This document shows positions 42,005 through 64,000 of a stretch of 64,000 bases of DNA, piece after piece. The translations under genes and the position numbers were made by a program. The stretch comes from Patescibacteria group bacterium (lineage in GTDB: Bacteria > Patescibacteriota > Patescibacteriia > SG8-24): assembly GCA_028714475.1 (NCBI GenBank), contig JAQTNC010000005.1:6857-70856 (forward strand). The letters are read 5' to 3'. Positions within the stretch are counted from its first letter, which is position 1. The number at the start of each line of letters is the position of its first letter. The notes under the pieces were generated by a model. That model worked only from the letters and a program-made list of their open reading frames with translations, searched no databases and was not told the origin of the DNA.

Positions 42005-42046
42005 GCGCCCCTAGGCAACAACGCTCCTAGCATATATCCTCCCGCC

Positions 42047-42571: not shown

Positions 42572-42684
42572 GAGGGGCTCCTTAGGCAGTTAGCCGTTCG
42601 GATCCCCCCTCGTCGTGATGACTAAAGCATACTACATAACGTATACCCCGTCAAGACCATAAAGACCGTCAAATATACAATAAT

Positions 42685-42981
42685 ATGACCCAACCCATCC
42701 AACCCCAGCAAAATCAGCTTCAGATAAAGGCTGACGACAAGATCCTCCAAGGCGTCTATTCGAACGCGATGCAGGTTCAGCACTCCAAGGAGGAATTCGT
42801 GATAGACTTCATGAACCTGTTCCCGCCGGCGGGGACGCTGAATGCGCGGGTCATTGTTTCGCCGGGACACCTCAAGCGGATGATCGCCGCGCTCGCCGAG
42901 AACCTCGCGAAGTACGAAGGGAACTTCGGCAAGATCGACACGGCGCAGGAACCGGCGGAGATCGGCTTCGCGGCGAAATAG
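42685..42981 (+). CDS. DUF3467 family protein
   Basis: 98 aa. Pattern IKADDKILQGVYSNAMQVQHSKEEFVIDFMNLFPP...ARVIVSPGHLKRMIAALAENLAKYEGNFG matches the DUF3467 consensus as remembered. Confidence 0.5.
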   Translation: MTQPIQPQQNQLQIKADDKILQGVYSNAMQVQHSKEEFVIDFMNLFPPAGTLNARVIVSPGHLKRMIAALAENLAKYEGNFGKIDTAQEPAEIGFAAK

Positions 42982-43060
42982 CCACAATAATATTCCCCGA
43001 GCGGAGCCCTGCACCGGAGCGGAGCGACTGGTGCGGGGCGGAGTCGAGGGGGGCTTCCTT

Positions 43061-45797: not shown

Positions 45798-46379
45798 ATG
45801 TTCCTGATTCCTGCCGCTCAAGCCGCCGAAGCCGCCCCGGATGTCGCGTCCGGTGCCGTTCAGGTTGGCCACAATCTCGCGAACTGGGTATCTGCCATCA
45901 ACTGGGCCGCCCCGACTTGGGACCTGTTCATCGTCCTGTTTTTCATCGTTACCGTCTTCCTCTACGGCATGTCGCTCGGCCGCGACCGCATCGTCGTCAT
46001 CCTCGTCTCTATCTACATGGCTCTCGCGGTCGTCTCGAACGCCCCGTACATCGGCAGCTTGAGGAACGGCGGCGAGCAATATGCCGCCTTCCGCATCGCC
46101 ATCTTCGTCGGCATCTTCATCACCCTGTTTTTCCTGCTTTCTCGATCGGCTCTGCTACGCAACATCGGCAACCTGGCCAACGGCAGCTGGTTCCAGGTGC
46201 TGGCGTTTTCCATCATGCATGTCGGTCTCCTCGTGAGCATCACCTTGTCGCTTCTGCCGCCGGAGGCGCTCGGCAGCCTGGCGCCGGCAACGCGCACCAT
46301 CTTCGTCTCCGACAACGGCCGCTTCTTCTGGATCGTGGCGCCCATAATCAGCATGGCGATGCTCAAGGGAGGGGAGTGA
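45798..46379 (+). CDS. hypothetical multi-pass membrane protein
   Basis: 193 aa with about 5 hydrophobic helices (LFIVLFFIVTVFLYG, IVVILVSIYMALAVV, IAIFVGIFITLFFLL, LAFSIMHVGLLVSITLSLL, FWIVAPIISMAML). Confidence 0.5.
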   Translation: MFLIPAAQAAEAAPDVASGAVQVGHNLANWVSAINWAAPTWDLFIVLFFIVTVFLYGMSLGRDRIVVILVSIYMALAVVSNAPYIGSLRNGGEQYAAFRIAIFVGIFITLFFLLSRSALLRNIGNLANGSWFQVLAFSIMHVGLLVSITLSLLPPEALGSLAPATRTIFVSDNGRFFWIVAPIISMAMLKGGE

Positions 46380-46622: not shown

Positions 46623-47309
46623 CTACTCCGCCGGCTCCGTCGGCGCTGGGACTTTCGCCCCGTTGCCAGCCGGCGCCGGCGAGAGGGTCACATCAATCTC
46701 GTCAGCCGTGAAGGAGGCGGCGCGAAGGATATCCTCCTTGGCTACCATAACCGTGAGCGTCTGTCCCGCCCGAAGGTCAGACAACTTGATCTCCGTTTGA
46801 CGGGTGCGGCTCGGCGGCGTCGGTCGCACAGGGGTTTTCCCGGCAGCCAAGTCAGCCGCGTATTGGCGTTGCGCCGCGTTGAATTCCTCGGCCGCCTTGG
46901 CGAGCTCTGCCGACGTCAGCGCCTCGGCCCTGTACAGCTTGGTGTCAGGGCCGACCTTGATTGTGCGTTGGGTGGGAGCCTGCTCGTCAAGCGGATTGCG
47001 GACGGTTTGGTTGGCCTCGATGACCAAAGAATCCGTGCCCACGGTCACGACCTTTCCGGCGAGTCGATGAATGGCCACGTTTTCAGGAAAGATGCGGGAA
47101 TCCGCAATCTTTTTCTGGGCCGACGCATAACCGGCTGCGAAACCGCCGTCAGTGGGATGGGTGCTGCCGACGGCGTAACCAGTGGCGTAAGCCACGGCCA
47201 CAACCACGGCCGCCGCGAGCCACGGCACGTATTTCCTTTTGAGGTGCGGCTTCAGGCCGGCCAAAGCCTTGCCGACGACCGGGGGAATATTTTTTTCTTC
47301 CATAGGCAT
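46623..47309 (-). CDS. hypothetical membrane-anchored Ala/Pro-rich protein
   Basis: Start at an internal Met (MPMEEKNIPP). N-terminal anchor LAAAVVVAVAYATGYAVG, then an extracytoplasmic low-complexity region. No domain recognised. Confidence 0.4.
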   Translation of the reverse strand: MPMEEKNIPPVVGKALAGLKPHLKRKYVPWLAAAVVVAVAYATGYAVGSTHPTDGGFAAGYASAQKKIADSRIFPENVAIHRLAGKVVTVGTDSLVIEANQTVRNPLDEQAPTQRTIKVGPDTKLYRAEALTSAELAKAAEEFNAAQRQYAADLAAGKTPVRPTPPSRTRQTEIKLSDLRAGQTLTVMVAKEDILRAASFTADEIDVTLSPAPAGNGAKVPAPTEPAE

Positions 47310-47448
47310 ATGGTTAATGTCGGTGGTATCATAGCATATTTTTGCCCAAAAAATCATGTCTAAATCCTTGGCTTGTGGACAAGCCGGACAGGGTCGCTAA
47401 CTGGGCGGTTTTGTGTTATAGTTAAAGCGCATTAATATTGAATACGAT

Positions 47449-48351
47449 ATGTCCTTAACGGAAGGGCCAAAAGAGCCAAAAACGGAAAAAACGAGCCGTT
47501 TGGTCAGGCGGATTCACGCCCTCATGCTCGCCGTGGCGGTTTTTGCGTTGTCCGCATTGGCGGGCGGCTCCGTGACGAAGGTCGTGCTGGCTGCCCAGTA
47601 CCAGGAGCCAAGCGGCCAGCCGCCGACCGGCAACATCCCGGTCACGGTCTGGAACGCCTTGGATCTGCCGACCGGCACCGAGGCGCAGGCGGCGGCGATT
47701 TTCGTGAGCGGCGGCGGTCCGCCACCTGCCCGCGTCGGCCTACAGGTCGGCACCAAGGATTTGGACATGGGGGCGAGCGCCGACGGCCAGAACCTGGTAT
47801 ACGGCGTGACTGATTTCGACAAGATGAGTGCCGGCGATCGGCTGATGCTGCTCCAGACGGTGAAGGACAACACCTACACCGACCGGATGGTCGTGAACAA
47901 GACCGGCGACCTTTACGCTTCGGGAGCCATTGTTTCCGGAGGCAACCTCAACACCGACAGCTGTTTCGGTCCGACTTTCCAGGGACTCACGACGACGACC
48001 TACACCGGCAACCTCAACAGCGGAACCCAGGGGTATTATGCCGCTTCGACGGTGTGCGCGGAGATTTTCGGCGCGGGTGCGCACGTTTGTTCCTCCGCGG
48101 AGATGATGAGTAGCCTGAAATGCTCCACGGCTTTTCCGCCGCACAAGATTCGCGACGCGGCCTTGAGCGGCTCCGACGGCTGGATTCAGGATGGCCCGCC
48201 GGGCTACACCGCGCCGGCCCAGGATTGCATGGGTTGGCGGTCCAACGCGCCTGGCAACCTCGGTCGCATGTGGCGTTTTGACGCCGCGACCGGCGGACAG
48301 GGTTACCTAACGACTTGTAATCAGGCGGTCCGTTTTGCCTGTTGCCGCTGA
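47449..48351 (+). CDS. secreted/anchored protein carrying the Cys-rich C-terminal domain shared with the 990-aa fibre protein
   Basis: N-terminal anchor IHALMLAVAVFALSALAGGSV. The C-terminal roughly 110 aa (GPPGYTAPAQDCMGWRSNAPGNLGRMWRFDAATGGQGYLTTCNQAVRFACCR) aligns with the C-terminus of 48368..51346 (GAPGFTKPASNDCAGWTSEAANTYGDFWEFQGDNGGTGYATSCNAKYPIACCR). Confidence 0.55.
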   Translation: MSLTEGPKEPKTEKTSRLVRRIHALMLAVAVFALSALAGGSVTKVVLAAQYQEPSGQPPTGNIPVTVWNALDLPTGTEAQAAAIFVSGGGPPPARVGLQVGTKDLDMGASADGQNLVYGVTDFDKMSAGDRLMLLQTVKDNTYTDRMVVNKTGDLYASGAIVSGGNLNTDSCFGPTFQGLTTTTYTGNLNSGTQGYYAASTVCAEIFGAGAHVCSSAEMMSSLKCSTAFPPHKIRDAALSGSDGWIQDGPPGYTAPAQDCMGWRSNAPGNLGRMWRFDAATGGQGYLTTCNQAVRFACCR

Positions 48352-48367
48352 CGACGGCATTGGCCAT

Positions 48368-51346
48368 ATGCATATGAACCAGAGGTCAGCTACCAAGAGG
48401 ACGATTCTTGCCGCGGCCACGGCATTCATCGCGACGTTCGCGGGAACGACGGCGGCGGTTGCCGCAGTGTGTCCGGACCACAACCCCAACTACTCCATCA
48501 TGTGCACCGGCGGCAATTCCTGGTGCGGCAACACCTGTCAGTCGGAACCGGTTTGCGTCGGCGAAAAATCCAAGGTTGACTGTTCGGGTTGCGGTTGCGT
48601 CTGTCCTGACGCACGGCCGAACGACTGCACGGGCGTGAACGGCCTGTGTCAGGAGACCAACGCCACCTGTGCCGCCCTGCACAAGCAGTCCGTCTGCGAC
48701 GCGACGCCGGGAGCCACCATCCAGCGCTGCGGCAACTGCGTTTCCGGCTATTCGCTCTGCGCGCCGGACACCTGTGTCGTCTCCACCAACCCCGCCTGTC
48801 CGCCGCCGGCCATCTGGGATCCCTGTGCCGGAACGTGTTCAGAAAAATATGTCCTCGCCAATCCGACGCCGGCTCAGTCGCCGCAATCGGTCAACCTGAA
48901 GATGAGCGGCAACATGTCGCTCGTCGGCGGCGACGTCTACCTGGCGAGCAACAAGGCGCTCCGTTTGGACGGCGCCGGACCGACCCTCCTCAACATCGGC
49001 AACTGGGATCTGGCCGGAACATCGGGGAACGTCATGGTTTGGGGCAGTCTGGGCGCCAACGATGGGCTGTTTGCCAACGCCATCTCGACCTTGCCGACGC
49101 CTGTCGGTCAGACGTTCGCCGACCTGCCGCCGAACAACACCGTCTGGACCGACAACATCTGCTTCAACGGCGGCACGAGATGTCGCAACTCCTGGCCGAT
49201 TGGCTTGCCGGAAATCGCCATTGCCGGCCAGACCGTGCGTTATACGGGTTCGGACTGGGTGGCGACATCCTTCCTGACCAACACGGGCACGGCCATCGGC
49301 ATCGGCACGGATACGCCCGGCTGGCCGCTCGACGTGCGCGTGAACGCGAGCACGGCCATGCTGAACCTGGACGACCAACTCGGCACGCTCTGGACCGGCG
49401 TCCGCCTGGCGCGCGTGACCGGCGTTGACCTCAACAAGGAGAAGTGGTTCGTGGGCATGAACAACGCCAATGAGCGGTTGAGCTTCATCCGCGACGGCGT
49501 AGCAACCTCCATGACGCTCGACACCAACGGCCGCGTCGGCATTGGCATCGCCGCGCCATCACAGCTCCTGAACGTCTACGGTGGAAACATCCGGGCGGAA
49601 CGGGGCAATGACGGCCTGAACGTGATGTATCAGCTGGCGAGCGAAACCGTCGGCAAAAGCTGGAGCTTCGGGATGGACGTCGAGGCGGCGGGGGTCGGCG
49701 ATTTCCGCCTCTCGCGCGGCAACTCCCTGAACAGCACCTATCTCTCGGTGTTGGCTGATTCCGGCCGCGTCGGCCTGAAGAACGCCGATCCCGGATTCGC
49801 TTTGGATGTCTCTGCCCAGCCGCCGGCGGATACCACGGCCATCGTTCGGATCGACCAGGGGAGCGGCGCGCCCAAGGTCTGGACCGGCTATCGAATGGAT
49901 CGCGTCCGCGGCGCGGAGCAATGGTTCCTCGGCATGAACGACACGGATGAAACGCTGCGCATTCGGTCTTCGAGCAGCGATGACCGCGTCGTCATTGACT
50001 CGGCGAACGGCAACGTCGGCATCGGCGACAGTACGCCGGCGGCGCTTTTGACGGTCGGCAACAACGAGCGGTTCACGGTTTCTTCGGCAGGCGATGTCGC
50101 GGCGGTCGGCAATTTGGCCGTCGGCGGCGGCCAGCTGACAACCACCTCGGTCGGCACGGCCAACGTCTTCAACACCAGTGCCACGGGGCTGAACATCGGC
50201 GGTGCCGCCTCGAACATGTCCATCGGACCGGGTGGCGCCACCGCCACGTCCATCAACCTCGCGGGCGGCGATACGGCCACCGGCTGCACCTTGAACGGCG
50301 CAACCGGAGATTTGGCCTGCTCGGGCAACATCACCGGCGGCAACGTTGGCAACCAGGGCTATTGGTCGCGCTCCGGCACCACCCTTCAGCCGAAAACCGC
50401 GGGTGACAACATCACCACCTCCGGCAACATCTCGACCACCGGCACCGGCGCTTTGAATATCGCCGGCAACGCGATTTTAGGGGACGGCCCGGGCCACAAC
50501 GTTATTTTCGGCGCCGGCGAAGCCATCCTGCAGGGTGGGCACCTGAACTTCGACTACAATACCTTTTATATTGACGCCGTGAACAACCGCTTGGGCTTCG
50601 GCACCAACGTCCCGGGCTACAAGATCGACGTCAGCTCGTCCTCCGACACCTCGATGATTCGTCTGGATAACGATACCGGCGCGTCGCGGCTGTGGACCGG
50701 CTTGCGGATGGATCGCGTCCGCGGCACGGAGAAATGGTTTCTCGGCATGAATGCCACTGACGAGAGTTTCCGGTTGCGTCGCGACGGCGGGACTGACGAC
50801 GTAATCGTGGATTCGACCGGCAAGGTCGGCATTGGCAGCACCCCATCATACAAGCTGGACGTGGCCGGCACGGTTCGGTCCACCGGCATTCGCATGGAAA
50901 CCGGCGCGGTCAACAACTACGTGCTCACGAGCGACGTGAACGGTCAGGCAAGCTGGCGGCCCATGCAGTACGCCGACGAATGCACGGGCGGCAAGTTCCA
51001 TCACCTGACGGCCGGAACCTACGACGGCAACGACCTCGGCAACTACAAGAACGTCGACAACGTCTGCGACGCCGGGAACCACATCTGCACCCCGGACGAG
51101 ATTCTGCGCACGGTGTACTGTTCGGCGTCCGGCACGCTGCCGGCCAGCGGTAACGCATGGGTCGCTAACGGCGCGCCGGGTTTCACCAAGCCAGCCTCCA
51201 ACGACTGCGCCGGCTGGACATCCGAAGCGGCCAACACCTACGGTGACTTCTGGGAATTCCAGGGCGACAACGGCGGCACGGGTTATGCCACCAGCTGCAA
51301 CGCCAAATACCCGATTGCGTGTTGTCGCGCGTACTGGTGGCTGTGA
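48368..51346 (+). CDS. giant secreted fibre/adhesin-like protein (about 990 aa): Cys-rich N-terminal module, about 130-aa repeat modules, Cys-rich C-terminal lectin-like domain
   Basis: Signal peptide (TILAAATAFIATFAGTTAAVAA). About 20 Cys in residues 30-180. Repeated modules WTGxRLxRVxGxExWFxGMNxxDExxRxRxxGxxxxVxDSxGxVGIG (four or more copies). C-terminal domain ends ...IACCRAYWWL. The start is the internal Met of the track ORF. Confidence 0.7.
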   Translation: MHMNQRSATKRTILAAATAFIATFAGTTAAVAAVCPDHNPNYSIMCTGGNSWCGNTCQSEPVCVGEKSKVDCSGCGCVCPDARPNDCTGVNGLCQETNATCAALHKQSVCDATPGATIQRCGNCVSGYSLCAPDTCVVSTNPACPPPAIWDPCAGTCSEKYVLANPTPAQSPQSVNLKMSGNMSLVGGDVYLASNKALRLDGAGPTLLNIGNWDLAGTSGNVMVWGSLGANDGLFANAISTLPTPVGQTFADLPPNNTVWTDNICFNGGTRCRNSWPIGLPEIAIAGQTVRYTGSDWVATSFLTNTGTAIGIGTDTPGWPLDVRVNASTAMLNLDDQLGTLWTGVRLARVTGVDLNKEKWFVGMNNANERLSFIRDGVATSMTLDTNGRVGIGIAAPSQLLNVYGGNIRAERGNDGLNVMYQLASETVGKSWSFGMDVEAAGVGDFRLSRGNSLNSTYLSVLADSGRVGLKNADPGFALDVSAQPPADTTAIVRIDQGSGAPKVWTGYRMDRVRGAEQWFLGMNDTDETLRIRSSSSDDRVVIDSANGNVGIGDSTPAALLTVGNNERFTVSSAGDVAAVGNLAVGGGQLTTTSVGTANVFNTSATGLNIGGAASNMSIGPGGATATSINLAGGDTATGCTLNGATGDLACSGNITGGNVGNQGYWSRSGTTLQPKTAGDNITTSGNISTTGTGALNIAGNAILGDGPGHNVIFGAGEAILQGGHLNFDYNTFYIDAVNNRLGFGTNVPGYKIDVSSSSDTSMIRLDNDTGASRLWTGLRMDRVRGTEKWFLGMNATDESFRLRRDGGTDDVIVDSTGKVGIGSTPSYKLDVAGTVRSTGIRMETGAVNNYVLTSDVNGQASWRPMQYADECTGGKFHHLTAGTYDGNDLGNYKNVDNVCDAGNHICTPDEILRTVYCSASGTLPASGNAWVANGAPGFTKPASNDCAGWTSEAANTYGDFWEFQGDNGGTGYATSCNAKYPIACCRAYWWL

Positions 51347-51395
51347 CCGCTATCCGCAATCCTCCTAATTTCGCCAACAATTTTTTGGAAAAATT

Positions 51396-54300
51396 ATGAA
51401 CAGGCACAACAACTTCGCGGCGCGGCTCGGGGATTGGTCGATTTCCCTGGTCGGTCCGGCGGTCATCGTAGGCGTTTTAGGTTGGATGGTCGGCGTGCAA
51501 CCGGTGCTCGCGGTTGACAAGTGCAAGGATTTTGGCCTGCCGTCCTTTAAATGTCCCGCGACCGCGACCCACGACGTCTGCGGAACGTCCCCGTTTTTCT
51601 ACTGTTTTTCCGGGGCTGATGACGCCTGCACCGGCGGCACTCCGGCACCGAACTACATTTTTGACTGTGAGAGCTGCTCCTGCAAATGTGATACCGCCAA
51701 TTTTCCCTGCGCCGGCTGTGCGGCCACGTCCGTGACGCCGGGGGGGAACTGTTCCCCGCCCAACAACGGTAAATACGCGAACGGCTGTCCGGAATCCTGC
51801 ACCTGTCCTTCCGGCACGACTAGGTGCATCAGCACCAACACCTGCGTCACCAATCAGTCCTGCCCGACCGGCATGACCTTCGACCCCTGCCTTCCTGGCT
51901 GCGTCACCCCGTACATCCTGCGCAGCCCAGCCACCGTGCAGGCCAACGCTTTCATTAATATAGACGGCAACGTCAAGACCGGCGGCGACCTGTATATGGC
52001 GGACGGCAAGGCCGTGCGTCTGGACAGCGCTGGGGCGACGGTGCTCAACATCGGCAATTGGGGCGGCGGCTCGTTCGCGGTCCGCGCTTTCGGTGCCTTG
52101 ACCGCTGACGGACGGATCGGTTCCGGAGCCCCTTCGCCGGCGTATCGGTTGGACATCGTGAGTGGCACCGACACCCAGGACATCCTTAATCTCAACGATC
52201 AGGACGGCAACGCCGCCAGCCGCGTCTGGACCGGCACCCGCTTGGCGCGTGAGTCCACGGAAAAGTGGTACATCGGCATGAACGCCACTTCTGACGATTT
52301 GCTCATGTCACGTAACGGCGGCGGCGTCGGCAACACCTCAATCTTCGTGAGCAACGCGACTGGCGATGTCGGTGTCGGCACGACCAACCCGACCGGCACT
52401 CTCTCCGTCGGCAACGGCGCCGTGACCCTTTTCTCGGTGGATGGCGCGACCGGCGACGTGGTGACGGCCGGCAACCTGGCCGTGAACGGCGGCAACCTCA
52501 CGACGACCGCCGGAATCTTCAACATCGCCGGCACGGCCTCGACCGTGAACCTCGGTGGCGGCGCGGCAAGCACCGGCTGTACCTTGGATGCCGACGGCAA
52601 TTTGGTCTGTGCCGGCACCATTACCTCATCCGGTTCCGGCGGCGGCGGCGCGGTCGGCTATTGGCAGCGCGGCGGCACGACCCTTTCGCCGGCGACAACC
52701 GACGATACCATCAGTACCGGCGGCAACATCATGACCACGGGCTCGGGGAGCATCACCTCGAACGGAAACCTGACGGTCAAGGGCGTCACCGTCTTGGGCG
52801 ACAATCCGGCGACGGACACGCTGACCCTGAACCTGCTGGACGTTCTCGTGCCGGGTGGCTTGAGTATCGACGCCGGCACGCTTTACGTTGATCCGGTCAA
52901 CAATCGCGTCGGCATCAGCCAAACCATCCCCGGTTACCGGTTCGACGTCAGCGCGGACAACGATTCGACCGCCATCGTACGCATTAATGACGACCGGGAC
53001 GGCAACACCGCCACGCGGCTTTGGACCGGCACGACGCTGTCGCGAGAAAGCCTGGAAAAATGGTTCCTCGGCATGAACGGCACCGATGACGACTTCACGC
53101 TCAACCGCAACGGCGGCGGGAGCGCGCTGACCGTGCTTAACAGCAACGGCTACGTTGGCATCGGCACGGACGACCCCGCGTCCCGTCTCGACGTCAATGG
53201 AACGGTCACATCGACCGGCATCGCGCTGGCTGGCGACTACACGCAGACCTCGGGCAATTTCACCTTCTCCGGCGGTGGCACGTTCTCGACCAGCGCGGCG
53301 AACACCACCCTCGGCACGACCAACATCGTGGCTGGCAAGACCATTACCCTCGGCGCCGCGGCCGGCGACCCGGCTGGCGCGAACGGCGCGATGTACTACA
53401 ACACCACCACCAACAACTTTCGCTGTTTCCAGGGCGGTGGCTGGACGGACTGTTATTCCGACGGCGCGGCAGTCGGGAGCGGCGTGAACGGGCAGGTCGT
53501 CTTCTGGACCGGCACGCGGTCCGTGGCCGGCGACAACGGTTTCTTCTGGGACAACATCACCAAACGCCTCGGCCTCGGCACGGTTAGCCCCGCATACCCC
53601 CTGGACATCCGCAACGACGGCGCCACGGGCACGACCGAGATGCGCCTCAATAACGACAACGCGACGAGGCTCTGGACCGGTACGGCGCTGTCGCGCCAGT
53701 CGAGCGAGAAATGGTTCATCGGCATGAACAGTAGCAACGATGACTTAAGCATCACGAGGAACGGCGATACCACCTCGATGCTGTCCGTCAGCAACGCGAC
53801 CGGCGACGTGACCGTGACGAACAACCTGGCCGTGAACGGCGGCACCATCTCCACGACGGCCGCAACGTTCAACCTGGCGCCGTCGGCAACGACCGTGAAC
53901 ATCGGCGGCGGCAGCGGCTCCACCGGCTGTTCCGTGGACGTGAACGGCAACCTCATCTGTTCAGGAACCATTTCGTCTGGCGGCGGCGGCGCGGTCGGCT
54001 ATTGGCAACGCGCTGGGACGACGCTCTCGCCGGCGACGGCGGGCGACGTCATCGCCACTTCCGGTGACATCCAGACGACGGGGGCGGGCAACATCCAGAC
54101 GACGGGCACCGGCGGCATCACGTCTAACGGCAACCTCTCCGTCAAGGGCAATACGACCTTGGGCGACGCTTTCGGCGACACCTTGACCATTAGCGGCCAG
54201 GCCGTCAACATCCCGAGCGGCCTCCTTTTCGGCGGCAACGCGCTGTTTTTGAGCAACAACACCAAGCGCGTCGCCATCGGCGCCGCTTCGGCCAGCTACC

Positions 54301-57140
54301 GTCTCGACATCGTCTCGGCCAACGACTCGCAAGTCATCATGCGGCTTAATGACGACAAGAACTACCCGACGTCACGGCTCTATACCGGCACGACTCTTTC
54401 GAGGGCCGGCACCGAGAAGTGGTTCCTCGGCATGAACTCCACGGACGACGACTTCACACTCAACCGCAACGCCGGTGCCAGCTCATCGTTCACCGTCCTA
54501 AACAGCAACGGCAACGTCGGCATCGGCACGGACAACCCTGCCCAGCCGCTCGACGTGAACGGCACGGCTCAAGTGGCCGGTTTCAAGATGCCGACCGGTG
54601 CGGCGGCCGGAAAGGTACTGATGTCGGACGCCAACGGCGTCGGCACTTGGCAACCCGTGGGGGTTGGTTCTGGTGTCGTGGCTGGTTCCGGCACGGCCGG
54701 ACAGGTGACATTCTGGGACGGTTCTTCTTCCATCACCGGCGACAACGCCCTTTACTGGGACAACGCCAGTAAACAGCTCGGCGTCGGCACCAACAGTCTC
54801 GTCGCCAGGCTGACCGTGGATGCGAGCGCCGGTGGCGAGGGCTTGAGCATCGCCACTTCAGCCGCGAGCAGTCCGCTCGACATCACTTCCGGCGGGCTGT
54901 CTGTCTTCAACGTTTCTCCGAGCGGCGGCGTGACGGCCGCGGAATCAGTGACCGCACCCTACGTCGGTGGCGCTTGGGTGGACGGCTCTTACCTAAGCGT
55001 CACGGGCGACGGCACGGTCGCCCGCATCACGACCGGGCACAATGATGCGGCGGAATTCTCCCAAATCATTTATAATTCAGCGAACGGCAGTGGCATCTCG
55101 GCTTACTCTAACGGCGGGACGGCGGCTTCTTTCGGCACCGGTAACGGCGTCGGGGGCGGCGCCTTGCCTCTCCGGTTGAGCACGAATTCCGGCAACGGCA
55201 TGAAGGAAATCTTGCGTCTGACGCGCGGCATATTCGGTGCTGGCGCCAATGGTGACGGCGGCAAGATCGTGTTTGAGAACGAGAAGTCCGACCAGACTTA
55301 CGGCGAGGTGGCAGGCATCGCTGGCATCACCGCTAACGCGAACCCCCTTCAGTGGCGCGGCGCGATGGCTTTCTACACGGTTCAAGACGGCGTTGAGCGC
55401 GAACGCGTCCGCATCGCGGAAAGCGGGGCGGTCGGCATCAATACAGATTCGCCGACCGAGATGCTGGAGGTGAATGGCGGCTACATCAAGTCCAACTGGG
55501 GTTTCTGCATCAACGCATCCTGCATCACCAGCTGGCCGACGGGCGGCGGCGGAACGGTCACGGGCAGCGGGACGCCCAGCTACGTGCCGAAATGGACGGG
55601 CGCCTCGGCCTTGTCGAACTCCCTGATTTATGATACCGGCTCTAATGTCGGCATCAGCGTCACCTCGCCCCAGAGCAAATTGGACGTGCAGGGAAATTTC
55701 CGGGTCGGTGGCGGCGATGGCATCCTTAACGTCGAAGCCCGAGGCTCCACGTACGGCTCCGAGACGCTGGCCATGCAGACGACCATCGACAACCGCAAGA
55801 TCAGCGACGGCTTTCCGTATGGGGGAGATGACCGGTACGTTCTCGCCCTGCAGCCCGACTATGGCCGCGTTGGCATCGGCACGGCGAGTCCGCGCAACAA
55901 GCTGGACGTGTGGGGCGGGGAAATCAACGTTACCGGCGCCGACATCAACGGCACCGCAGTCATTACTTCGAACGCCGGCACCGCCTATTACGGGAACAAC
56001 GCCTACGACAACGGCATCGCCATCGATCCCAGCGGCAATGTCGGCATCGGCGTGGCGCCGGGAGCCAAACTGCAGGTGCAGGGCGCCGGTGGCGTCAACG
56101 TTGATATGGTGGTCAACGGCCGCATCATGACCGGCGACGCCGGGGCTTCGGGCGGCATGTGGATCGATTCGGGCATGACCCGGTTCGTGGGCGACGACGG
56201 GGCCGGGGGCGTGGGCATCTGGAACAACGGTTGGCAGTTAGGGGTTTACCCCACTTACGTTAACGTTGCCCAGGGCCTGTCGATTTGGGGCTACACCGAC
56301 CTAACCGGGTTTACCGATTGGGGCGATGCTACGGTGACAGGATACCTGACGGTCAATGGCGGACCCGGCAACGCGGCCTTTAGTGTCGCGTCTCCGGCCG
56401 ATGTCACCATGCAGGCCATCCGCGCCGACGGCACCGGCAACTATACAGCCTTGTTCAACAATAGTGGTGCCACGAATGTCGCGACGATTGGGGTCAACAG
56501 CACCAACGGTTCCGCAGCCGCTTTCTCTACGGGAAATGCGGCTAAACCCGCAGTTACCATCTCCGCATCGGACAATAATTCGCAGGCCCTGCATGTCCAT
56601 CAAGGTCGCATTGGCATTATGGTCGATTCGCCTTCTTACCCCTTGGACATAGCCGGATCAGCGCACGCCACTGGTAGCTGGTTGACGTCAGATGTCCGTT
56701 GGAAGAAGGACGTACGGACCATCGATGACGCCCTCGAAAAGGTCAATGAGTTGCGCGGCGTCACGTTCTACTGGAAGACCGTCGAGTATCCGAACAAGGG
56801 ATTTGACGATCGGCAACACCTGGGCCTGATTGCCCAGGAGGTCGAGCCGGTTCTGCCGCAGGTCGTCAGCACCGACAATCAGGGCTATAAGTCGGTCGCG
56901 TATGATACGCTGGCCGCCCTGCTCGTCGAGGCCGTCAAGGAAGTCGACCAACAGGCAGTCAAGCTGGCTCCCGATGGCAGCGTGGTGCTGACCGGTGATT
57001 TGCAGGCCAACGAAAACCGATGGGGCGCGGCCAGCAACTGGATAGCCTGCCCCGAAAAAGGCGAGTGCGCCTGCCCGAACGGCTCCTACGTGACGCAGAT
57101 AAAGGATCGTGGCACTTGGATTCAATGTCATAAGCTCTAG
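51396..57140 (+). CDS. giant secreted fibre-like protein (1914 aa) with a Cys-rich N-terminal module, many repeat modules and a C-terminal phage tail-fibre S74 intramolecular-chaperone domain
   Basis: N-terminal anchor/signal. A Cys-rich module homologous to those of 48368 and 58818. Repeats RLWTGTxLSRESxEKWFLGMNxTDDDFTLNRNGG...NSNGxVGIGTDxP. A C-terminal SDVRWKKDVRTIDDALEKVNELRGVTFYWK...QHLGLIAQEVEPVLPQVV..GYKSVAYDTLAALLVEAVKE matches the Peptidase_S74 chaperone-of-endosialidase domain. Confidence 0.75.
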   Translation: MNRHNNFAARLGDWSISLVGPAVIVGVLGWMVGVQPVLAVDKCKDFGLPSFKCPATATHDVCGTSPFFYCFSGADDACTGGTPAPNYIFDCESCSCKCDTANFPCAGCAATSVTPGGNCSPPNNGKYANGCPESCTCPSGTTRCISTNTCVTNQSCPTGMTFDPCLPGCVTPYILRSPATVQANAFINIDGNVKTGGDLYMADGKAVRLDSAGATVLNIGNWGGGSFAVRAFGALTADGRIGSGAPSPAYRLDIVSGTDTQDILNLNDQDGNAASRVWTGTRLARESTEKWYIGMNATSDDLLMSRNGGGVGNTSIFVSNATGDVGVGTTNPTGTLSVGNGAVTLFSVDGATGDVVTAGNLAVNGGNLTTTAGIFNIAGTASTVNLGGGAASTGCTLDADGNLVCAGTITSSGSGGGGAVGYWQRGGTTLSPATTDDTISTGGNIMTTGSGSITSNGNLTVKGVTVLGDNPATDTLTLNLLDVLVPGGLSIDAGTLYVDPVNNRVGISQTIPGYRFDVSADNDSTAIVRINDDRDGNTATRLWTGTTLSRESLEKWFLGMNGTDDDFTLNRNGGGSALTVLNSNGYVGIGTDDPASRLDVNGTVTSTGIALAGDYTQTSGNFTFSGGGTFSTSAANTTLGTTNIVAGKTITLGAAAGDPAGANGAMYYNTTTNNFRCFQGGGWTDCYSDGAAVGSGVNGQVVFWTGTRSVAGDNGFFWDNITKRLGLGTVSPAYPLDIRNDGATGTTEMRLNNDNATRLWTGTALSRQSSEKWFIGMNSSNDDLSITRNGDTTSMLSVSNATGDVTVTNNLAVNGGTISTTAATFNLAPSATTVNIGGGSGSTGCSVDVNGNLICSGTISSGGGGAVGYWQRAGTTLSPATAGDVIATSGDIQTTGAGNIQTTGTGGITSNGNLSVKGNTTLGDAFGDTLTISGQAVNIPSGLLFGGNALFLSNNTKRVAIGAASASYRLDIVSANDSQVIMRLNDDKNYPTSRLYTGTTLSRAGTEKWFLGMNSTDDDFTLNRNAGASSSFTVLNSNGNVGIGTDNPAQPLDVNGTAQVAGFKMPTGAAAGKVLMSDANGVGTWQPVGVGSGVVAGSGTAGQVTFWDGSSSITGDNALYWDNASKQLGVGTNSLVARLTVDASAGGEGLSIATSAASSPLDITSGGLSVFNVSPSGGVTAAESVTAPYVGGAWVDGSYLSVTGDGTVARITTGHNDAAEFSQIIYNSANGSGISAYSNGGTAASFGTGNGVGGGALPLRLSTNSGNGMKEILRLTRGIFGAGANGDGGKIVFENEKSDQTYGEVAGIAGITANANPLQWRGAMAFYTVQDGVERERVRIAESGAVGINTDSPTEMLEVNGGYIKSNWGFCINASCITSWPTGGGGTVTGSGTPSYVPKWTGASALSNSLIYDTGSNVGISVTSPQSKLDVQGNFRVGGGDGILNVEARGSTYGSETLAMQTTIDNRKISDGFPYGGDDRYVLALQPDYGRVGIGTASPRNKLDVWGGEINVTGADINGTAVITSNAGTAYYGNNAYDNGIAIDPSGNVGIGVAPGAKLQVQGAGGVNVDMVVNGRIMTGDAGASGGMWIDSGMTRFVGDDGAGGVGIWNNGWQLGVYPTYVNVAQGLSIWGYTDLTGFTDWGDATVTGYLTVNGGPGNAAFSVASPADVTMQAIRADGTGNYTALFNNSGATNVATIGVNSTNGSAAAFSTGNAAKPAVTISASDNNSQALHVHQGRIGIMVDSPSYPLDIAGSAHATGSWLTSDVRWKKDVRTIDDALEKVNELRGVTFYWKTVEYPNKGFDDRQHLGLIAQEVEPVLPQVVSTDNQGYKSVAYDTLAALLVEAVKEVDQQAVKLAPDGSVVLTGDLQANENRWGAASNWIACPEKGECACPNGSYVTQIKDRGTWIQCHKL

Positions 57141-57145
57141 AGCAA

Positions 57146-57180
57146 AAAGCCGTCTGGCCAAGCCAGACGGCTTTTTTAGC
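57146..57180 (+). terminator. rho-independent terminator AAAAAGCCGTCTGGCCAAGCCAGACGGCTTTTTT after the 1914-aa gene
   Basis: Perfect 11-bp stem, a 4-nt loop and a T-run starting 6 bp after the stop. Confidence 0.8.
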
Positions 57181-57345
57181 GCTGAAGTACTGGAGTACTG
57201 AAGAGCTGAAGAAATTGCTGGAATCTTTTTTTGCCAAGTTTTTCCTCTTCAGCACTTCAGTACTTCTGCACTCCTGCACTGACTTCTCCAGCACCCCGGC
57301 ACTTCCCAACTCCGCCCTTTTCGGCTATATTTATTGCTGGACCAT

Positions 57346-58779
57346 ATGCTAAAATTATTCGATAGTTTAGCCAAGAAAAAGCGCGTGTTCAAGCCGCTTC
57401 AGGCCGGACGGGTGACGATGTATAACTGCGGGCCGACGGTGTACGACTACGTCCATATCGGCAACCTGCGGTCTTTCCTGCTGGCCGACCTCGTGCGCCG
57501 CTTCCTTGATCACCGCGGTTTTGAGGTGCGGCAAGTGATGAACATCACCGACGTCGGCCACATGCTGGCGGACGCGGATGTCGGCGAGGACAAGCTCGAG
57601 GTTTCGGCCGCCAAGGCCGGCAAGACGCCCGCCGAAGTGGCCAGGTTCTTCACCGAGGCTTTTTTTCGTGACATTGATCGGCTCGGCGTGCGGCGCGCCG
57701 CCATGTATCCGCGGGCGAGCGAGCACGTGCCGGAGATGATCGCCATGATCGGCCGGCTCCTGGAGAAGGGCTGCGCCTACAAGGTTCAGGAAACCGACGG
57801 CGGCGCCAGCATATATTTTGACGTCTCGACTTTTCCGGAATACGGCCGGCTTTCCGGCAACGTCATCGAGGGGCTGAATCCCGGCGCCCGCGTTGACGTG
57901 CGCTCCGAGAAGAAACATCCGGCTGATTTCGCCCTCTGGATCCACAATCCGAAGCACCTCATGCAATGGGAAACGCCGTGGGGCAAAGGCTATCCCGGCT
58001 GGCACATCGAGTGCTCGGCCATGTCCACCAAATACCTGGGTGACACCATCGACATCCATACCGGCGGCGAGGACAACAAGTTTCCTCATCACGAGTGCGA
58101 GATCGCGCAGGCTGAGTGCGCCACTGGCCAGAAGTTCGTCCGTTATTGGCTGCACGGCACCCACCTTCTGGTGGATGGCGAGAAGATGTCAAAATCCAAA
58201 GGCAACTTTTATACGCTCGACGACCTCACGGCCAAAGGTTACGAGCCGCGCCATGTCCGCTACCTCCTCCTCTCCTCGCATTATCGGGCGCCGCTCAATT
58301 TCACCTTGGCGGGTCTCGATGCGGCCAAGTCCGCCTTGGCCCGTCTCGACAATTTCGCGGATCTGTTGCGGGATTATGCGCCGAAGAAAAACGGCCGGAG
58401 CGATCGGGTCGGGATGACGGCGATGAAAGGCCTGAATCAGGCCCTGGATGACGATCTGAACGTGGCCGAAGCGCTGGCCGCGGCCTTTGAGCATGTCCAC
58501 GCGATCAATGAGCGCTTGGCTTCCGGCGAACTGACGGCCCGCGAAAAGGCCGGCGCCGAGGCTTTTATGAAGGCCCTAGGCGATGTTTTCGGTTTCGTTT
58601 TCGGCCGCGCCGCCGATGAGGCCGACGTGCCAGCCTCGGTCCGGGAACTCATGGAGAAACGCGAAACGGCGCGCCGTGAAAAGCGTTTCGTCGAATCGGA
58701 CCGCGTGCGCGACGAGATCAAGGCGCTCGGCTGGATGGTCGAGGATACGCCGGAAGGCTGTCGCGTCAAGCGGCTGTAA
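57346..58779 (+). CDS. cysS: cysteine--tRNA ligase
   Basis: [20 protein letters not shown] (HIGH-type motif HIGN). The Zn-binding Cys residues (C at NCGPT, HIECSAM). KMSKS at [10 protein letters not shown]. The alternative start at 57334 is in frame. Confidence 0.9.
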
Positions 58780-58817
58780 GTCGCCGCCAGTGTCGGTCAT
58801 CATCCTAGACATCGATT

Positions 58818-59897
58818 ATGATCAATAGTCGCCAACTGATCGCCGCCAGTGCCGTGACCCTCGCGCTGCTTGTGGCCGCGCCGGCGTTGGCCAAGGACCG
58901 CTGTCGCGATTGGGGACAGCCGTCGTTCAAGTGTCCGACCACGGCCACGCGCGCGGTCTGCGGCAAGGAGCCTAACTTGTACTGCTTTGACGATCGCGGC
59001 AACCCGAACGCCGACCTTTGTTCCGGCGTCACTCCCGCGCCTCGCTTCAAGTTCGATTGCGAGACCTGCACCTGTCGGTGCGACGAGGAAAAATATCCCT
59101 GTGACGGTTGTTCTTCCGCCAAGAACGCCTTAGGCGCCACGTGCAACGGCGTCGTCGGCGGCGCCTACGTTGACCGTTGCGGCACCTGCGGCTGCGGCGC
59201 CGGCACGGCCATCTGCGTATCCACGAATACCTGCGTGACGATTGTGGACTGCCCGACTGGTTTCGGTTTCGAACCGTGTTCGGCCGCCTGTATCCCTGGT
59301 TTCGTCACCCCGACCGCGACTGTTGAGCCGCCAGTGCCGCCGTCAGGAGAAACGTCGACCGCGCCGAGTTCGGCAGCTGACCAGATTGCCGCCGCGCCTG
59401 CCGCGCCAGCCGACGGCCGTCCGGAAGAGCTTCCGGCTGGCGAGATGGGGGAGCGGCAGGCTGAAACGGCGGACGGTTCGGCTTTCGGTTGGACATTGGT
59501 CCTCCTCGCGGCCTTCGTGGCTGGCCTCGGGTTAGGCAGTTATTTCTCCGGCCGTTTCGGCCGTCCCGGGCGCGTCGAAACCCCGTTTCACGGCGTCGTG
59601 GAAAAAATCAGCGGCCGCGAATTGAGCCTGACCGTTGGGCAAGGGCGTGATCGTCGACGTCTCTCGGTGAGCGTCGGGCCAGCCGCGGAAATCAACGCCT
59701 TGACCCTGCCGGAAGAAGGCGAAGGCCGTCTTGAACGCCATCATATACCGCTTGCGTGCCTGCGGCCTCATGACACGGTGGAGGTCGCGATGACGCAAAC
59801 CAAGCCCGACAAGAAGCTGATTGCCGACTCGGTCGCGCTCATGACCACCGACGCGACGCTGGCCAGAAGGCGGGCGTGCCTGAAGGAAGATGCGTAG
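58818..59897 (+). CDS. single-pass membrane protein with an extracytoplasmic Cys-rich module homologous to the N-termini of the two giant fibre proteins, plus a cytoplasmic C-terminal domain
   Basis: Signal peptide. DRCRDWGQPSFKCPTTATRAVCGKEPNLYCF...FDCETCTCRCD aligns with DKCKDFGLPSFKCPATATHDVCGTSPFFYCF...FDCESCSCKCD of 51396. An Ala/Pro/Ser linker, TM FGWTLVLLAAFVAGLGLGSYF, then about 120 cytoplasmic residues. Confidence 0.55.
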   Translation: MINSRQLIAASAVTLALLVAAPALAKDRCRDWGQPSFKCPTTATRAVCGKEPNLYCFDDRGNPNADLCSGVTPAPRFKFDCETCTCRCDEEKYPCDGCSSAKNALGATCNGVVGGAYVDRCGTCGCGAGTAICVSTNTCVTIVDCPTGFGFEPCSAACIPGFVTPTATVEPPVPPSGETSTAPSSAADQIAAAPAAPADGRPEELPAGEMGERQAETADGSAFGWTLVLLAAFVAGLGLGSYFSGRFGRPGRVETPFHGVVEKISGRELSLTVGQGRDRRRLSVSVGPAAEINALTLPEEGEGRLERHHIPLACLRPHDTVEVAMTQTKPDKKLIADSVALMTTDATLARRRACLKEDA

Positions 59898-61202: not shown

Positions 61203-61706
61203 ATGAATTTTGCGGAAAAACCGGAAGCGCAACCGGCCGCCGCGCCGCCTGAAACCCAGGCGGAGCAGTTGGCGTCCCCGGAAAGCGGCCCGCGGCCGGA
61301 AGGGACACCGGCCCAGGAGAGAAAACAGCCCGTTCCCGTCGCGCCGATGCCGCAAATCGTCCTGCCGGACGTCGCCCCAAGCGCGGCCGCGCCGGCCAAG
61401 GACCCACAACTCATGAGGGTTGAGCGCGTGCTTGAGGACGGCTTGCTCGAGGCCTATTTGGCCATGCCGGCCAAGGAGCGCGCGCGCTTCAGGGCCGTCG
61501 GCGAGGAAACGGCCGCCAAGATTAACGTCCTGATCGAGCAGTCAAAGGCCACGGCCAAGGCCGTGTTGAAGCTCATCCGCGACTGGCTGAGGATGATTCC
61601 CGGCGTCAACCGTTTTTTCCTGGAACAGGAAGCGAAGCTGAAGACTGACCGCGTCATGCTCCTCAACGAACAGCGCCGCCGTGACAAGGAAGGGGGAACC
61701 GTATGA
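61203..61706 (+). CDS. hypothetical Pro/Ala-rich protein, translationally coupled (ATGA) to the downstream ATPase
   Basis: Start at internal Met MNFAEKPEAQP. Low-complexity N-terminus, helical C-terminus. The stop overlaps the start of the 61703 ORF. Confidence 0.35.
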   Translation: MNFAEKPEAQPAAAPPETQAEQLASPESGPRPEGTPAQERKQPVPVAPMPQIVLPDVAPSAAAPAKDPQLMRVERVLEDGLLEAYLAMPAKERARFRAVGEETAAKINVLIEQSKATAKAVLKLIRDWLRMIPGVNRFFLEQEAKLKTDRVMLLNEQRRRDKEGGTV

Positions 61707-64000
61707 CGCCGATTTTTGTCGTTTCCCCGGTGACTGCCTTGCCGGTCGAGCCAGTCGCCGCCGTACCCATCGTCTCGACGAGCGGAAGCGTTCTCTTGAC
61801 GCTGGTTTTGGTTTTTGTCGGCTTGGCCTTGGGCATCGTCGTCATCTTGAACGTCATCCGTCATTTCATGCGCCGACGCTTCCAGACCGGCGCGGCTTTC
61901 CGGCGCGTGGTCATTCTTGTGACCGTGCCGAAGGAAACGCAGGAGAAAGGCGAGTCCGGCATGAAGGAAAAGGAACTGCGCGAGATTCAGGAGGACATCG
62001 GGGTCATGGAGAGCGTTTTCGCGAGCATCGGCGGTTTGCCCGCGGAGAAGGGCATCACGTCCTGGTTTGTTGGCCGCCAGGACGCCTTTTCGTTCGAGAT
62101 TGTCTCGCAACAAGGGCTGGTCTCCTTTTATATCGCCGTCCCGGAATCGCGCAAGGATTTCATCGAACAGCAGGTTCACGCCCATTTCCCGCACGCGCAG
62201 ATCGAGGAAGTCGAGGATTACAACGTTTTCGTCCCGAACGGGGCCGTGGTGGCCGCTCGATTGCTGTTCCGTCGGATGCCGGCCTTCCCGCTCAAGACCT
62301 TCCGCAAGCTGGAGCACGATCCGCTGAACGCGCTCGCGAACGCGCTCGCCAAGGTGGACAAGGCGGATGGCGCGGCCATTCAGGTCGTCGTCCGCTCGTC
62401 GCGGCGGCGCTGGCGGCGGCGCGGCGCCAGGTTCACGAGCGCCATGCAGCAGGGCAAGACCATGAATCAGGCCTTGGCGGAGACGACTTGGCGCGGGCAG
62501 GTTCTCAAGGCGTTCATGTTGGCCAAGCCGAAGACCGTCGAACAGGGCGGCAAGGAGCACAAGCTTTCACCGCTCGAGGAAGAGATGGTCAAGTCAATGG
62601 AGGAGAAGATCTCCAAGTTCGGGCTCGATGCGAACGTGCGGGTGGTGGCGTCGGCCGCGACCGCCGAGCGCGCCAGCCTTTACGTCAACAACATCATCGG
62701 CGCTTTCAGCCAATTCAACAGCCCGCAGTACGGCAATTCCCTGGTGCGCAGCAACCCCAGCCAAAAGCGGCTCATTCATGATTTCATCTACCGTCATTTC
62801 CGCGAACGTGGCCATTTGGTGCTGAACGGCGAGGAGCTGGCGAGCATGTACCATTTTCCGCTGCCTTCGACCGAAACGCCGAACATCCGCTGGCTGACCG
62901 CGCGCAAGGCCGCGCCGCCGTCCAACCTGCCGAAGGAGGGCCTGTATCTCGGTGAAGTCGAGTATCGCGGCATCACCACGCCGGTGTTCATCAAGCCGGG
63001 CGACCGCCTGCGCCATATGTACTGCATCGGCAAGTCCGGTGCCGGCAAGTCGGAGTTCATCGCCAACCTCGCCGCGCAGGACGTGAAAAACGGCGACGGC
63101 CTCTGCATCATCGATCCGCACGGCGACCTCGTGGAAACCGTGCTCGGTTGCGTGCCGCGGGAACGGGCCGACGACGTGGTCGTGTTCGACCCATCGGACA
63201 TGGACCGGCCAATCGGTCTCAACATGCTCGAGGCCCCGAGCGAGGAGATGAAGGATTTCGTCTGCGGCGAGATGATCGCCATCTTCTACAAGCTCTTCCC
63301 GCCGGAGATGATCGGCCCGATGTTCGAGCACAACATGCGCAACTTCATGTTGACGCTCATGTCGGACCGCGACAACCCGGGTACCATCGCCGAGGTGCCG
63401 CGCCTCATCGTTGATCCGGAATACCAGAAGCAGTGGGTGAAGAAGGTCCGCGATCCGGTCGTGCTCAATTTTTGGGAGAAGGAAATCGCCAAGACCTCGG
63501 ACTTCCACAAGTCGGAGATGTTCGGCTACCTCATCTCCAAGGTCGGCCGCTTCGTCGAGAACGCGATGATGCGCAACATCATCGGCCAGCAGAAATCGGC
63601 CTTCGACTTCCGCAAGATCATGGATGAGCGGAAAATCTTCCTCGTGAACCTGTCGAAAGGCAAGATCGGCGACATCAACGCGAACCTGCTCGGTCTCATC
63701 ATCGTCACCAAGCTGCAGATGGCGGCCATGGGCCGCGCCGACATGCCGGCCAGCGAGCGCAAGCCATTCTACCTTTACATCGACGAGTTCCAGAATTTCA
63801 TCACGCCGTCCGTCGCGACGATTCTCTCCGAGGCGCGCAAATACGCCTTGAGCCTCTACTTGAGCCATCAGTACCTCGGTCAGCTTTCGCCTAAGGGCGA
63901 CAACGAGATTCGCGACGCCGTGCTCGGCAACGCCGGCACGATCATGTGCGGGCGCATCGGCGTCGAGGACGCGCAGTACCTGGAAAAAGAGTTCGCGCCG
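61703..64000 (+). CDS. membrane-anchored P-loop ATPase of the VirB4/TrbE-HerA/FtsK (DUF87-like) superfamily; 3' end beyond the window. Not present in the supplied ORF track
   Basis: Hand translation from the ATG at 61703 is open to the window end (766 codons). N-terminal TM (LLTLVLVFVGLALGIVVILNVI). Walker A at about residue 445 (MYCIGKSGAGKSEF), followed by LCIIDPHGDL. Walker B at FYLYIDEFQNF. The track lists only antisense and off-frame shadows here. Confidence 0.6.
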   Translation, partial: MTPIFVVSPVTALPVEPVAAVPIVSTSGSVLLTLVLVFVGLALGIVVILNVIRHFMRRRFQTGAAFRRVVILVTVPKETQEKGESGMKEKELREIQEDIGVMESVFASIGGLPAEKGITSWFVGRQDAFSFEIVSQQGLVSFYIAVPESRKDFIEQQVHAHFPHAQIEEVEDYNVFVPNGAVVAARLLFRRMPAFPLKTFRKLEHDPLNALANALAKVDKADGAAIQVVVRSSRRRWRRRGARFTSAMQQGKTMNQALAETTWRGQVLKAFMLAKPKTVEQGGKEHKLSPLEEEMVKSMEEKISKFGLDANVRVVASAATAERASLYVNNIIGAFSQFNSPQYGNSLVRSNPSQKRLIHDFIYRHFRERGHLVLNGEELASMYHFPLPSTETPNIRWLTARKAAPPSNLPKEGLYLGEVEYRGITTPVFIKPGDRLRHMYCIGKSGAGKSEFIANLAAQDVKNGDGLCIIDPHGDLVETVLGCVPRERADDVVVFDPSDMDRPIGLNMLEAPSEEMKDFVCGEMIAIFYKLFPPEMIGPMFEHNMRNFMLTLMSDRDNPGTIAEVPRLIVDPEYQKQWVKKVRDPVVLNFWEKEIAKTSDFHKSEMFGYLISKVGRFVENAMMRNIIGQQKSAFDFRKIMDERKIFLVNLSKGKIGDINANLLGLIIVTKLQMAAMGRADMPASERKPFYLYIDEFQNFITPSVATILSEARKYALSLYLSHQYLGQLSPKGDNEIRDAVLGNAGTIMCGRIGVEDAQYLEKEFAP

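Follow-up and report, generated by a model that had tools for sequence, protein, structure and literature searches.

A 64-kb window of DNA from a Patescibacteria bacterium (contig JAQTNC010000005.1; all positions refer to this 64,000-nt stretch) carries five open reading frames (ORFs) at 47449–59897 on the plus strand: four fibre-type genes and cysS. We name the four genes p300, p990, p1914 and p359 after the lengths of their products in aa. The cluster probably encodes cell-surface adhesive fibres, similar in kind to phage tail fibres and to mosaic adhesive trimers (MATs), in Uhrbacteria-like Patescibacteria. In our proposal, p990 and p1914 act as surface fibres for binding another cell, with p300 as a short lectin-like companion. 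This proposal is made because a signal peptide, a common base, a beta-rich shaft and a diversified tip together match the logic of the MATs.

The first gene, p300 (47449–48351, +), encodes a short secreted or anchored protein and is followed by p990 (48374–51346, +), a non-S74 fibre, and p1914 (51396–57140, +), an S74-type fibre. The listed ORF of p990 begins at TTG 48335, and its annotated 990-aa product (P0014) at ATG 48374. The fourth gene, p359 (58818–59897, +), encodes the N-terminal module of the fibres on a membrane stalk. It is separated from the others by cysS (57334–58779, +; cysteinyl-tRNA synthetase, Pfam tRNA-synt_1e, E 3.6e-103), which lies between p1914 and p359 and splits the cluster; cysS is a housekeeping gene that forms the right-hand conserved flank of the cassette and is no functional part of the fibres. 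The intergenic gaps are short (22 nt for p300–p990, 49 nt for p990–p1914 and 38 nt for cysS–p359), which makes co-transcription plausible; a promoter and terminator scan added nothing firm on transcription. The four genes have modules in common at BLAST E-values of 1e-10 to 1e-77, in agreement with an initial annotation, made from the DNA letters alone, that described them as assembled from mix-and-match modules; cysS had gone unmentioned there. Exact database matches, with locus tags PHT12_02655 and PHT12_02675, carry the name "Patescibacteria group bacterium" and belong to a metagenome-assembled genome, whose source samples are SRR22315508 and SRR22315509.

Three of the proteins start with the same N-terminal module (N-module), at aa 31–168 of p990 (48464–48877), aa 40–175 of p1914 (51513–51920) and aa 26–170 of p359 (58893–59327). 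BLASTP aligned p1914 aa 36–172 with p359 aa 22–165 at 49% identity (E 5e-45) and p359 with p990 at 28% identity (E 3e-10). Each copy contains exactly 20 Cys, as had been estimated from the letters, and begins right after an A-x-A signal-peptide site: AVA/AVC in p990 (signal peptide aa 1–30, 48374–48463), VLA/VDKC in p1914 (aa 1–39, 51396–51512) and ALA/KDRC in p359 (aa 1–25, 58818–58892). An exhaustive hidden Markov model search of 1.84 billion cluster representatives recovered the N-module in only 61 at E ≤ 1e-3, 34 of them at E ≤ 1e-10. In these 61 clusters it is always N-terminal, directly after the signal peptide, and the proteins range from 193 to 3434 aa. When 48 copies were aligned, Cys made up 50% or more of the residues in 19 columns and 96% or more in 13. 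Self-comparison gave no internal repeat. A conserved stretch, GD.Y...GKA.R.DG.G.T.LN.GNW, comes after the module. The expectation that the module would fall outside known families held: it had no match in Pfam, NCBIfam, PHROGs or PDB sequences, including a profile search of PDB, and was not found in IMG/VR with the patterns used. By these sequence criteria, the 20-Cys N-module is a rare, unannotated domain family that is new here.

What follows the N-module varies at the distal end. At least six interchangeable C-terminal end types occur on this base: a C-type-lectin-like domain (CTLD, about 19 proteins), S74 plus a Cys tail (about 8), S74 plus a coiled coil (about 7), a "YNC...C.R.N" domain, a "...CFKYR" domain and a "...CLYWDR" domain. 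A Pfam scan of 54 members of the N-module family found Peptidase_S74 in 11, YadA_head in nine and no other family.

Between base and tip, p990 and p1914 share a beta-rich shaft (BLASTP E 1e-77). It occupies aa 169–865 of p990 (48878–50968), with five capping loops and one Cys pair. p1914 has eight capping loops, and its shaft at aa 176–1100 (51921–54695) continues into a phage-tail-fibre-like distal shaft at aa 1101–1764 (54696–56687). The motif unit is WTG..L.R...EKWF.GMN ... GNVGIGT..P..LDV, or more fully WTG..L.R...EKWF.GMN..DD.F.L.R......V.NSNG.VGIGT..P..LDV, and closes with the capping-loop motif. The recurring unit noted in the initial annotation is thus real, but its spacing is irregular and the regular period of about 130 aa proposed there does not hold. 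Within p1914, a tandem duplication can be recognized at the DNA level (52472–53205 and 53822–54567, period 1350–1365 nt or ~ 450 aa, 72–79% identity), so that part of the change in shaft length is visible in the window itself. A profile of the 54 family members (A3) matched Bdellovibrio fibre chains in PDB (bd2133, E 2.7e-6; 8ojn, E 1.1e-5; 8ol4, E 5e-3), and these matches run through the capping-loop region; the MAT structures in PDB cover tips and shafts.

The end of p1914 had been assigned to the S74 intramolecular chaperones of phage tail spikes, and this assignment is secure: Peptidase_S74 (PF13884) matched aa 1765–1824 with E 2.8e-17 and 63.2 bits against a cut-off of 22, and the catalytic motif SDVRWK (SDxxxK) is complete, with Ser1765 (codon 56688–56690) and Lys1770. 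The S74 chaperone region spans aa 1765–1860 (56688–56975), and its matches among PDB sequences are MYRF and a phage long-tail-fibre tip. It is followed by a 54-aa tail with four Cys (aa 1861–1914, 56976–57137; WG..S.W..CP..G.C.CP.G.Y.T.....G..I.C..L), which is conserved in eight family members and likewise forms the end of seven besides p1914, namely P0013, P0017, P0018, P0020, P0025, P0039 and P0048. The Pfam scan gave no known family for this tail. Self-cleavage at Ser1765, as predicted from the motif, would release 150 residues including the 4-Cys tail.

Like the S74 fibres and tailspikes of phages (K1F endosialidase, T5 pb1/L-shaped fibre, T4-like gp37), p1914 combines an S74 domain bearing a Ser–Lys dyad with the capping-loop motif. 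PHROG tail-fibre families matched only aa 1131–1856, and tblastn against 50,697 phage records aligned approximately aa 1310–1860 at 22–33% identity, whereas the first 1100 aa gave a single weak phage match. As judged from these alignments, only about the last 600 residues of p1914 resemble phage proteins. Unlike phage fibres, p1914 has a Sec signal peptide, lacks virion genes nearby and carries a Cys-rich module in place of an N-terminal virion-attachment domain.

The C-termini of p300 and p990 are related to each other (p300 aa 170–300 vs p990 aa 869–986, 36% identity, E 7e-23) and form the tip of p990 at aa 866–990 (50969–51343) and the last part of p300 at aa 170–300 (47956–48348). The initial annotation had listed this Cys-containing domain ending in ACCR as a shared module, which it is; it appears not to be a new domain and is best assigned as a CTLD. 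Neither Pfam, NCBIfam, PHROGs nor PDB sequences, including a profile search, gave a match for it, and the same was true of p300 against PDB sequences. An AlphaFold2 model of the p990 domain from a 54-sequence alignment was confident (pLDDT 85.9, pTM 0.80). Foldseek matched this model to snake-venom CTLDs (snaclecs), mincle and endostatin with probabilities of at most 0.99 and a best E of 2.4e-3, to the MAT tip Bd2740 by fold and, in a viral library, to poxvirus and herpesvirus CTLDs and phage DUF1566 proteins. We regard the fold match to CTLDs as moderate. The model of whole p300 with 10 homologues had a pLDDT of 37, and its domain is taken as a probable CTLD by homology to the modelled p990 domain. 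When the C-terminal profile was compared with an endostatin sequence by hhalign, the Cys/Trp region lined up as expected, though without significance (probability 0.17), so the CTLD assignment comes from the fold search. Canonical Lectin_C was not matched by Pfam at E ≤ 0.1 in either protein, and the EPN/QPD and WND motifs for Ca and sugar are absent. Given the moderate match and the missing motifs, the domains are better described as CTLDs by fold than as demonstrated lectins.

Other proteins with CTLD tips include Bd2740, Bordetella phage Mtd, invasin/intimin D5, Link modules, endostatin and the C-terminal domain of Legionella Lcl. Like these, p300 and p990 are elongated and have an alpha/beta CTLD fold as their last domain, and like Bd2740 and Mtd they lack a Ca/sugar motif. 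They differ from the listed proteins in having no Lectin_C or DUF1566 sequence match, in a distinctive pattern of 8 Cys that ends in ..ACC[KR], and in the frequent occurrence of stand-alone copies. A profile search recovered 46 further proteins (P0072–P0117), mostly unannotated stand-alone proteins of 145–236 aa (~ 180 aa) that carry an N-terminal signal or anchor. In this set, P0116 joins the CTLD to collagen repeats, and P0090 bears the label Woesearchaeota. CTLD relatives were also found on four IMG/VR contigs, including L013 (4869–5324) and L015 (4719–5342); the L013 copy directly follows baseplate-wedge, baseplate and tail-fibre genes, yet has a signal peptide. Mtd-like variable proteins carry a C-terminal CTLD, and CTLD tips are classic targets of diversity-generating retroelements in the candidate phyla radiation (CPR). 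No direct template/variable repeat touches 47956–48351 or 50936–51346, the CTLD-coding ends, so such an element is not involved here; the window ORFs scanned against Pfam included no reverse transcriptase family.

The remainder of p300 consists of an N-terminal hydrophobic segment (aa ~ 18–49, 47449–47595) and an uncharacterised middle part with the motif EPSxxPPxGNIPVTVWN. In p359, the N-module is followed by a Pro/Ala-rich linker (aa 171–222, 59328–59483), a hydrophobic segment predicted to be a transmembrane (TM) helix (aa ~ 223–245, 59484–59552) and a predicted cytoplasmic tail of 114 aa (59553–59894), which has no BLAST similarity to the neighbouring 244-aa protein. When whole p359 was the query of a word-indexed homologue search, p359 itself was the sole match, probably because low-complexity words swamped the query. 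A second protein that combines an N-module with a TM segment, P0055, is consistent with the speculative idea that p359 serves as a membrane dock for the fibre bases.

The genomic setting of the cassette is conserved. On eight related Patescibacteria contigs, the fibre locus occupies the same dnaJ-to-cysS interval, in the order hrcA, grpE, dnaK, (DUF3467), dnaJ, a 193-aa membrane protein, a ~ 230-aa protein on the other strand, a small CTLD protein, the fibre gene or genes, cysS, (a short N-module protein) and corA. Of the related locus contigs (L003–L012), the full order is found in L003/L004/L005, L006, L007, L009/L010 (a 1.5-Mb contig) and L011, and a partial one in L008 (JBAIWZ010000015.1, 5.7 kb) and L012. 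One relative among species-representative genomes is a Candidatus Uhrbacteria metagenome-assembled genome. This conserved order across relatives indicates that the cassette is chromosomal and vertically inherited, with variable content. A p300-type gene opens it in every related locus, and between two and four fibre genes are present. Fibre proteins at the locus range from 704 to 2585 aa; counterparts of p1914 are 853–854, 1347, 1914, 2573 or 2585 aa long among the genomes and differ in their C-termini. Fibres are 32–53% identical to their counterparts and show large indels, whereas DnaJ, CysRS and the 193-aa protein are 59–76% identical. In the comparison with L006, these values are 46–53% in the alignable parts of the fibres, again with large indels, and 61–76% for the other three. 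L008 was binned as Acutalibacteraceae; its order of an S74 fibre end, cysS and an N-module protein is that of Patescibacteria, and the contig is therefore probably mis-binned.

Two genes between dnaJ and the fibres keep their position in the relatives. One encodes a 193-aa multi-pass membrane protein (45798–46379, +) with 63–76% identity to L003, L006 and L007, the other a 244-aa N-terminally anchored protein (46623–47357, −) with 31–39% identity to its relatives; neither has a family assignment. They may be members of the system or merely syntenic, synteny being what associates them with it. When approximately 45 window ORFs were compared with Pfam, the families obtained were confined to housekeeping, transport and signalling: a phosphate transporter, Fic, histidine kinases, PGA_cap, LpxC, YidC, hrcA, grpE, dnaK, dnaJ, cysS and corA, and no virion, capsid, terminase, sheath, tube, baseplate, integrase or contractile-system family. 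The window contains no tRNA genes. The locus is thus cellular and free of other phage genes, as the initial annotation had concluded, and neither the window nor the dnaJ–cysS placement kept in the relatives places it inside a prophage.

The closest described system is the MAT superfamily of Bdellovibrio bacteriovorus, which comprises 21 paralogues, 13 with and 8 without S74 (Caulton et al, Nat Microbiol 2024; PMC10769870). All have a conserved N-domain of ~ 130 aa after the signal peptide and a phage-like shaft with capping loops, for which the motif NVGIGTxxPxxKL is listed in the supplement of that paper; the tips include a non-Ca C-type lectin fold (Bd2740), and surface display, as well as glycan binding for one member, has been shown by experiment (PMC10769870). 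The cassette studied here agrees with MATs in its signal peptide followed by a 130–140-aa N-domain common to the paralogues (three in this case), in a shaft with such capping loops whose profile matches Bd2133, 8ojn and 8ol4, in an S74 (SDxxxK) or non-S74 adhesive tip, in tip swapping and in the presence of several paralogues per genome. Bdellovibrio, moreover, depends on attaching to other cells. The earlier statement that this combination of modules occurs in no described adhesin therefore does not stand: MATs follow the same logic, the family profile matches MAT chains and the C-terminal module matches Bd2740 by fold. What survives of the earlier interpretation is a secreted, modular, fibre-like set of proteins with an S74 end at a cellular locus; the claim that the combination is unprecedented falls away.

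The differences from MATs are nevertheless considerable. The N-domain described here has 20 Cys, whereas that of MATs is described only as beta-rich; this contrast, drawn from the description, suggests that the two domains are different. The host is a monoderm-type CPR bacterium and no Gram-negative predator, its fibre genes lie together at a single conserved site of the chromosome, the S74 domain is followed by a 4-Cys tail, and one paralogue, p359, is a membrane stalk without a fibre. The lists of MAT-like proteins in other organisms in PMC10769870 include no Patescibacteria, and we found no literature linking MAT, S74 or tail-fibre-like proteins with Patescibacteria. The design principle of an N-domain, a phage-like shaft and S74 or non-S74 tips is thus already known; the positionally fixed, content-variable fibre cassette in a CPR lineage is new, as are, beyond MATs, the Cys tail after S74 and the display of an N-module on a membrane stalk. 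A further parallel is with trimeric autotransporter adhesins (YadA), which follow a similar modular trimeric fibre logic, and YadA_head is present in L003 and L009 orthologues as well as in the family members mentioned above. Unlike YadA, the window proteins have neither YadA_head nor a C-terminal beta-barrel translocator, and their orientation is reversed, with the conserved end at the N-terminus.

These observations are consistent with the following model, which builds on the observed domain identities, motifs, conservation pattern and non-phage context. Each protein would be exported by Sec, as suggested by the A-x-A sites directly before the first Cys. The N-module of ~ 140 aa, whose 20 Cys could form up to 10 disulfides, would be the conserved cell-proximal base common to the paralogues, and p359 might, speculatively, be the membrane dock for these bases. 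The beta-rich shaft units, each closed by a GNVGIGT..P..L.V loop, would push the distal end outward, presumably as trimers. The distal end would then be the variable ligand-binding part: a non-canonical CTLD in p990 and p300, its fold taken from the confident model of the p990 domain, and in p1914 a phage-like tip that would be exposed once S74 has driven trimer folding and cut at Ser1765. Shaft length would shift by tandem duplication and tips would be swapped between lineages, which is the pattern expected of the host- or prey-recognition determinants of an episymbiont.

Several points weigh against this model. From sequence and context we infer the surface location, the trimerisation, the S74 cleavage, the ligand binding and the target. 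The part assigned to the N-module, anchoring to the cell, is a guess from its position. The sequence link to MATs consists of short motifs that also occur in phage fibres, reached E-values of only 1e-5 to 1e-6 and needed a profile, and the single window proteins had no MAT match among PDB sequences. The idea of p359 as a dock is weakened by the relatives: L003 and L007 have no gene at this position, and the one in L006 and L008 encodes a protein with no TM helix.

We considered whether the cluster might instead be part of a domesticated prophage remnant or a tailocin, with its genes coding for the tail fibres of a phage or contractile-injection particle rather than for free-standing cell-surface adhesins. 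The S74 domain and the PHROG tail-fibre matches at the C-terminus of p1914 would fit, as would the CTLD relatives on the IMG/VR contigs, in particular the L013 copy after tail genes. However, all proteins have Sec signal peptides, phage similarity is nearly absent from the first 1100 aa of p1914, the N-module was not found in IMG/VR with the patterns used, the approximately 45 window ORFs scanned gave no capsid, terminase, sheath, tube, baseplate or integrase family, the window has no tRNA genes, and each of the related genomes that were examined, the 1.5-Mb contig among them, has the cassette between dnaJ and cysS. We consider this origin improbable. The vertically inherited position beside conserved housekeeping genes would agree with structural envelope proteins, that is, an S-layer or scaffold with no role in cell recognition; such proteins could well be secreted, beta-rich and repetitive, and disulfide-rich domains suit a robust extracellular matrix. 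A lattice former would, however, be atypical in having interchangeable C-termini, two to four genes and lengths of 704–2585 aa at the same locus, its tips would not be expected to be an adhesive CTLD fold or the S74 typical of fibres and spikes, and neither Pfam nor NCBIfam gave a match to SLH or another S-layer family. This explanation is unlikely too.

A conserved N-terminal region with variable C-terminal cassettes is also the general layout of polymorphic toxins and contact-dependent delivery systems, in which the C-termini would be effectors. The tips that could be characterised are CTLD and S74, not enzyme or toxin folds, and Pfam and NCBIfam gave no toxin families. Small immunity-like ORFs are lacking after the genes, where gaps of 22–49 nt lead to the next fibre gene or to cysS. 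We therefore consider a toxin function very improbable and favour adhesive surface fibres as the explanation of the locus.

Several other features of the window deserve mention. The dnaK–dnaJ interval contains DUF4440 (41636–42004), a NYN-domain protein (42047–42571) and a 240-aa ORF (43031–43753); relatives have only a DUF3467 gene there, which indicates that 41636–43753 is a local insertion. Beyond the cassette, an ORF of more than 772 aa (61685–64000, +) remains open at the window end and is 64–68% identical to proteins of ~ 845 aa that L007 and L011 encode downstream of corA. The L011 counterpart matches DUF8128, T4SS-DNA_transf and TraG-D_C, which identifies the ORF as a type IV secretion coupling-protein-like ATPase, conserved just past the fibre cassette. 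Near the start of the window, five tandem copies of the 24-nt unit GCTCGCTCGGGGAAGAAAGGAGGG (4123–4242) are located ~ 100 nt upstream of a PHO4-family phosphate transporter gene (4349–6094). Within the ORF at 17785–18459 (+), a 62-nt direct repeat (17924–17985 and 18092–18153, 92% identity) corresponds to two treble-clef zinc-finger copies (Pfam zf_Tbcl_2, E 9e-30). An LpxC-family deacetylase (22337–23230, +; E 1.9e-46) is followed by an FGE-sulfatase-domain protein (23300–23998, −; E 1.7e-29). The lineage is generally thought to be without lipid A, and LpxC is unexpected there.

As a rule, Patescibacteria live as episymbionts. Those in cultivation cannot do without adhesins, and the players known from them are type IV pili, a type IV secretion system and unspecified adhesins. 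The cassette bears on the question of host recognition and attachment outside Saccharibacteria. With it, the design of MATs and phage fibres reaches beyond a Gram-negative predator into CPR. Its fixed position, constant base and exchangeable lectin-like or S74 tips single it out as a concrete candidate for how an uncultured CPR clade recognises its hosts. A more far-reaching version, which we hold only tentatively and think doubtful, is that the N-module is a new disulfide-rich fold forming a lineage-specific surface anchor, that fibre bases dock by homotypic contacts onto stalk proteins like p359, and that the dnaJ–cysS cassette with its swappable tips is the host-range determinant of the clade. 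If true, these bacteria, which have a wall but no outer membrane, would use N-module docking in place of anchoring by sortase, SLH or the outer membrane.

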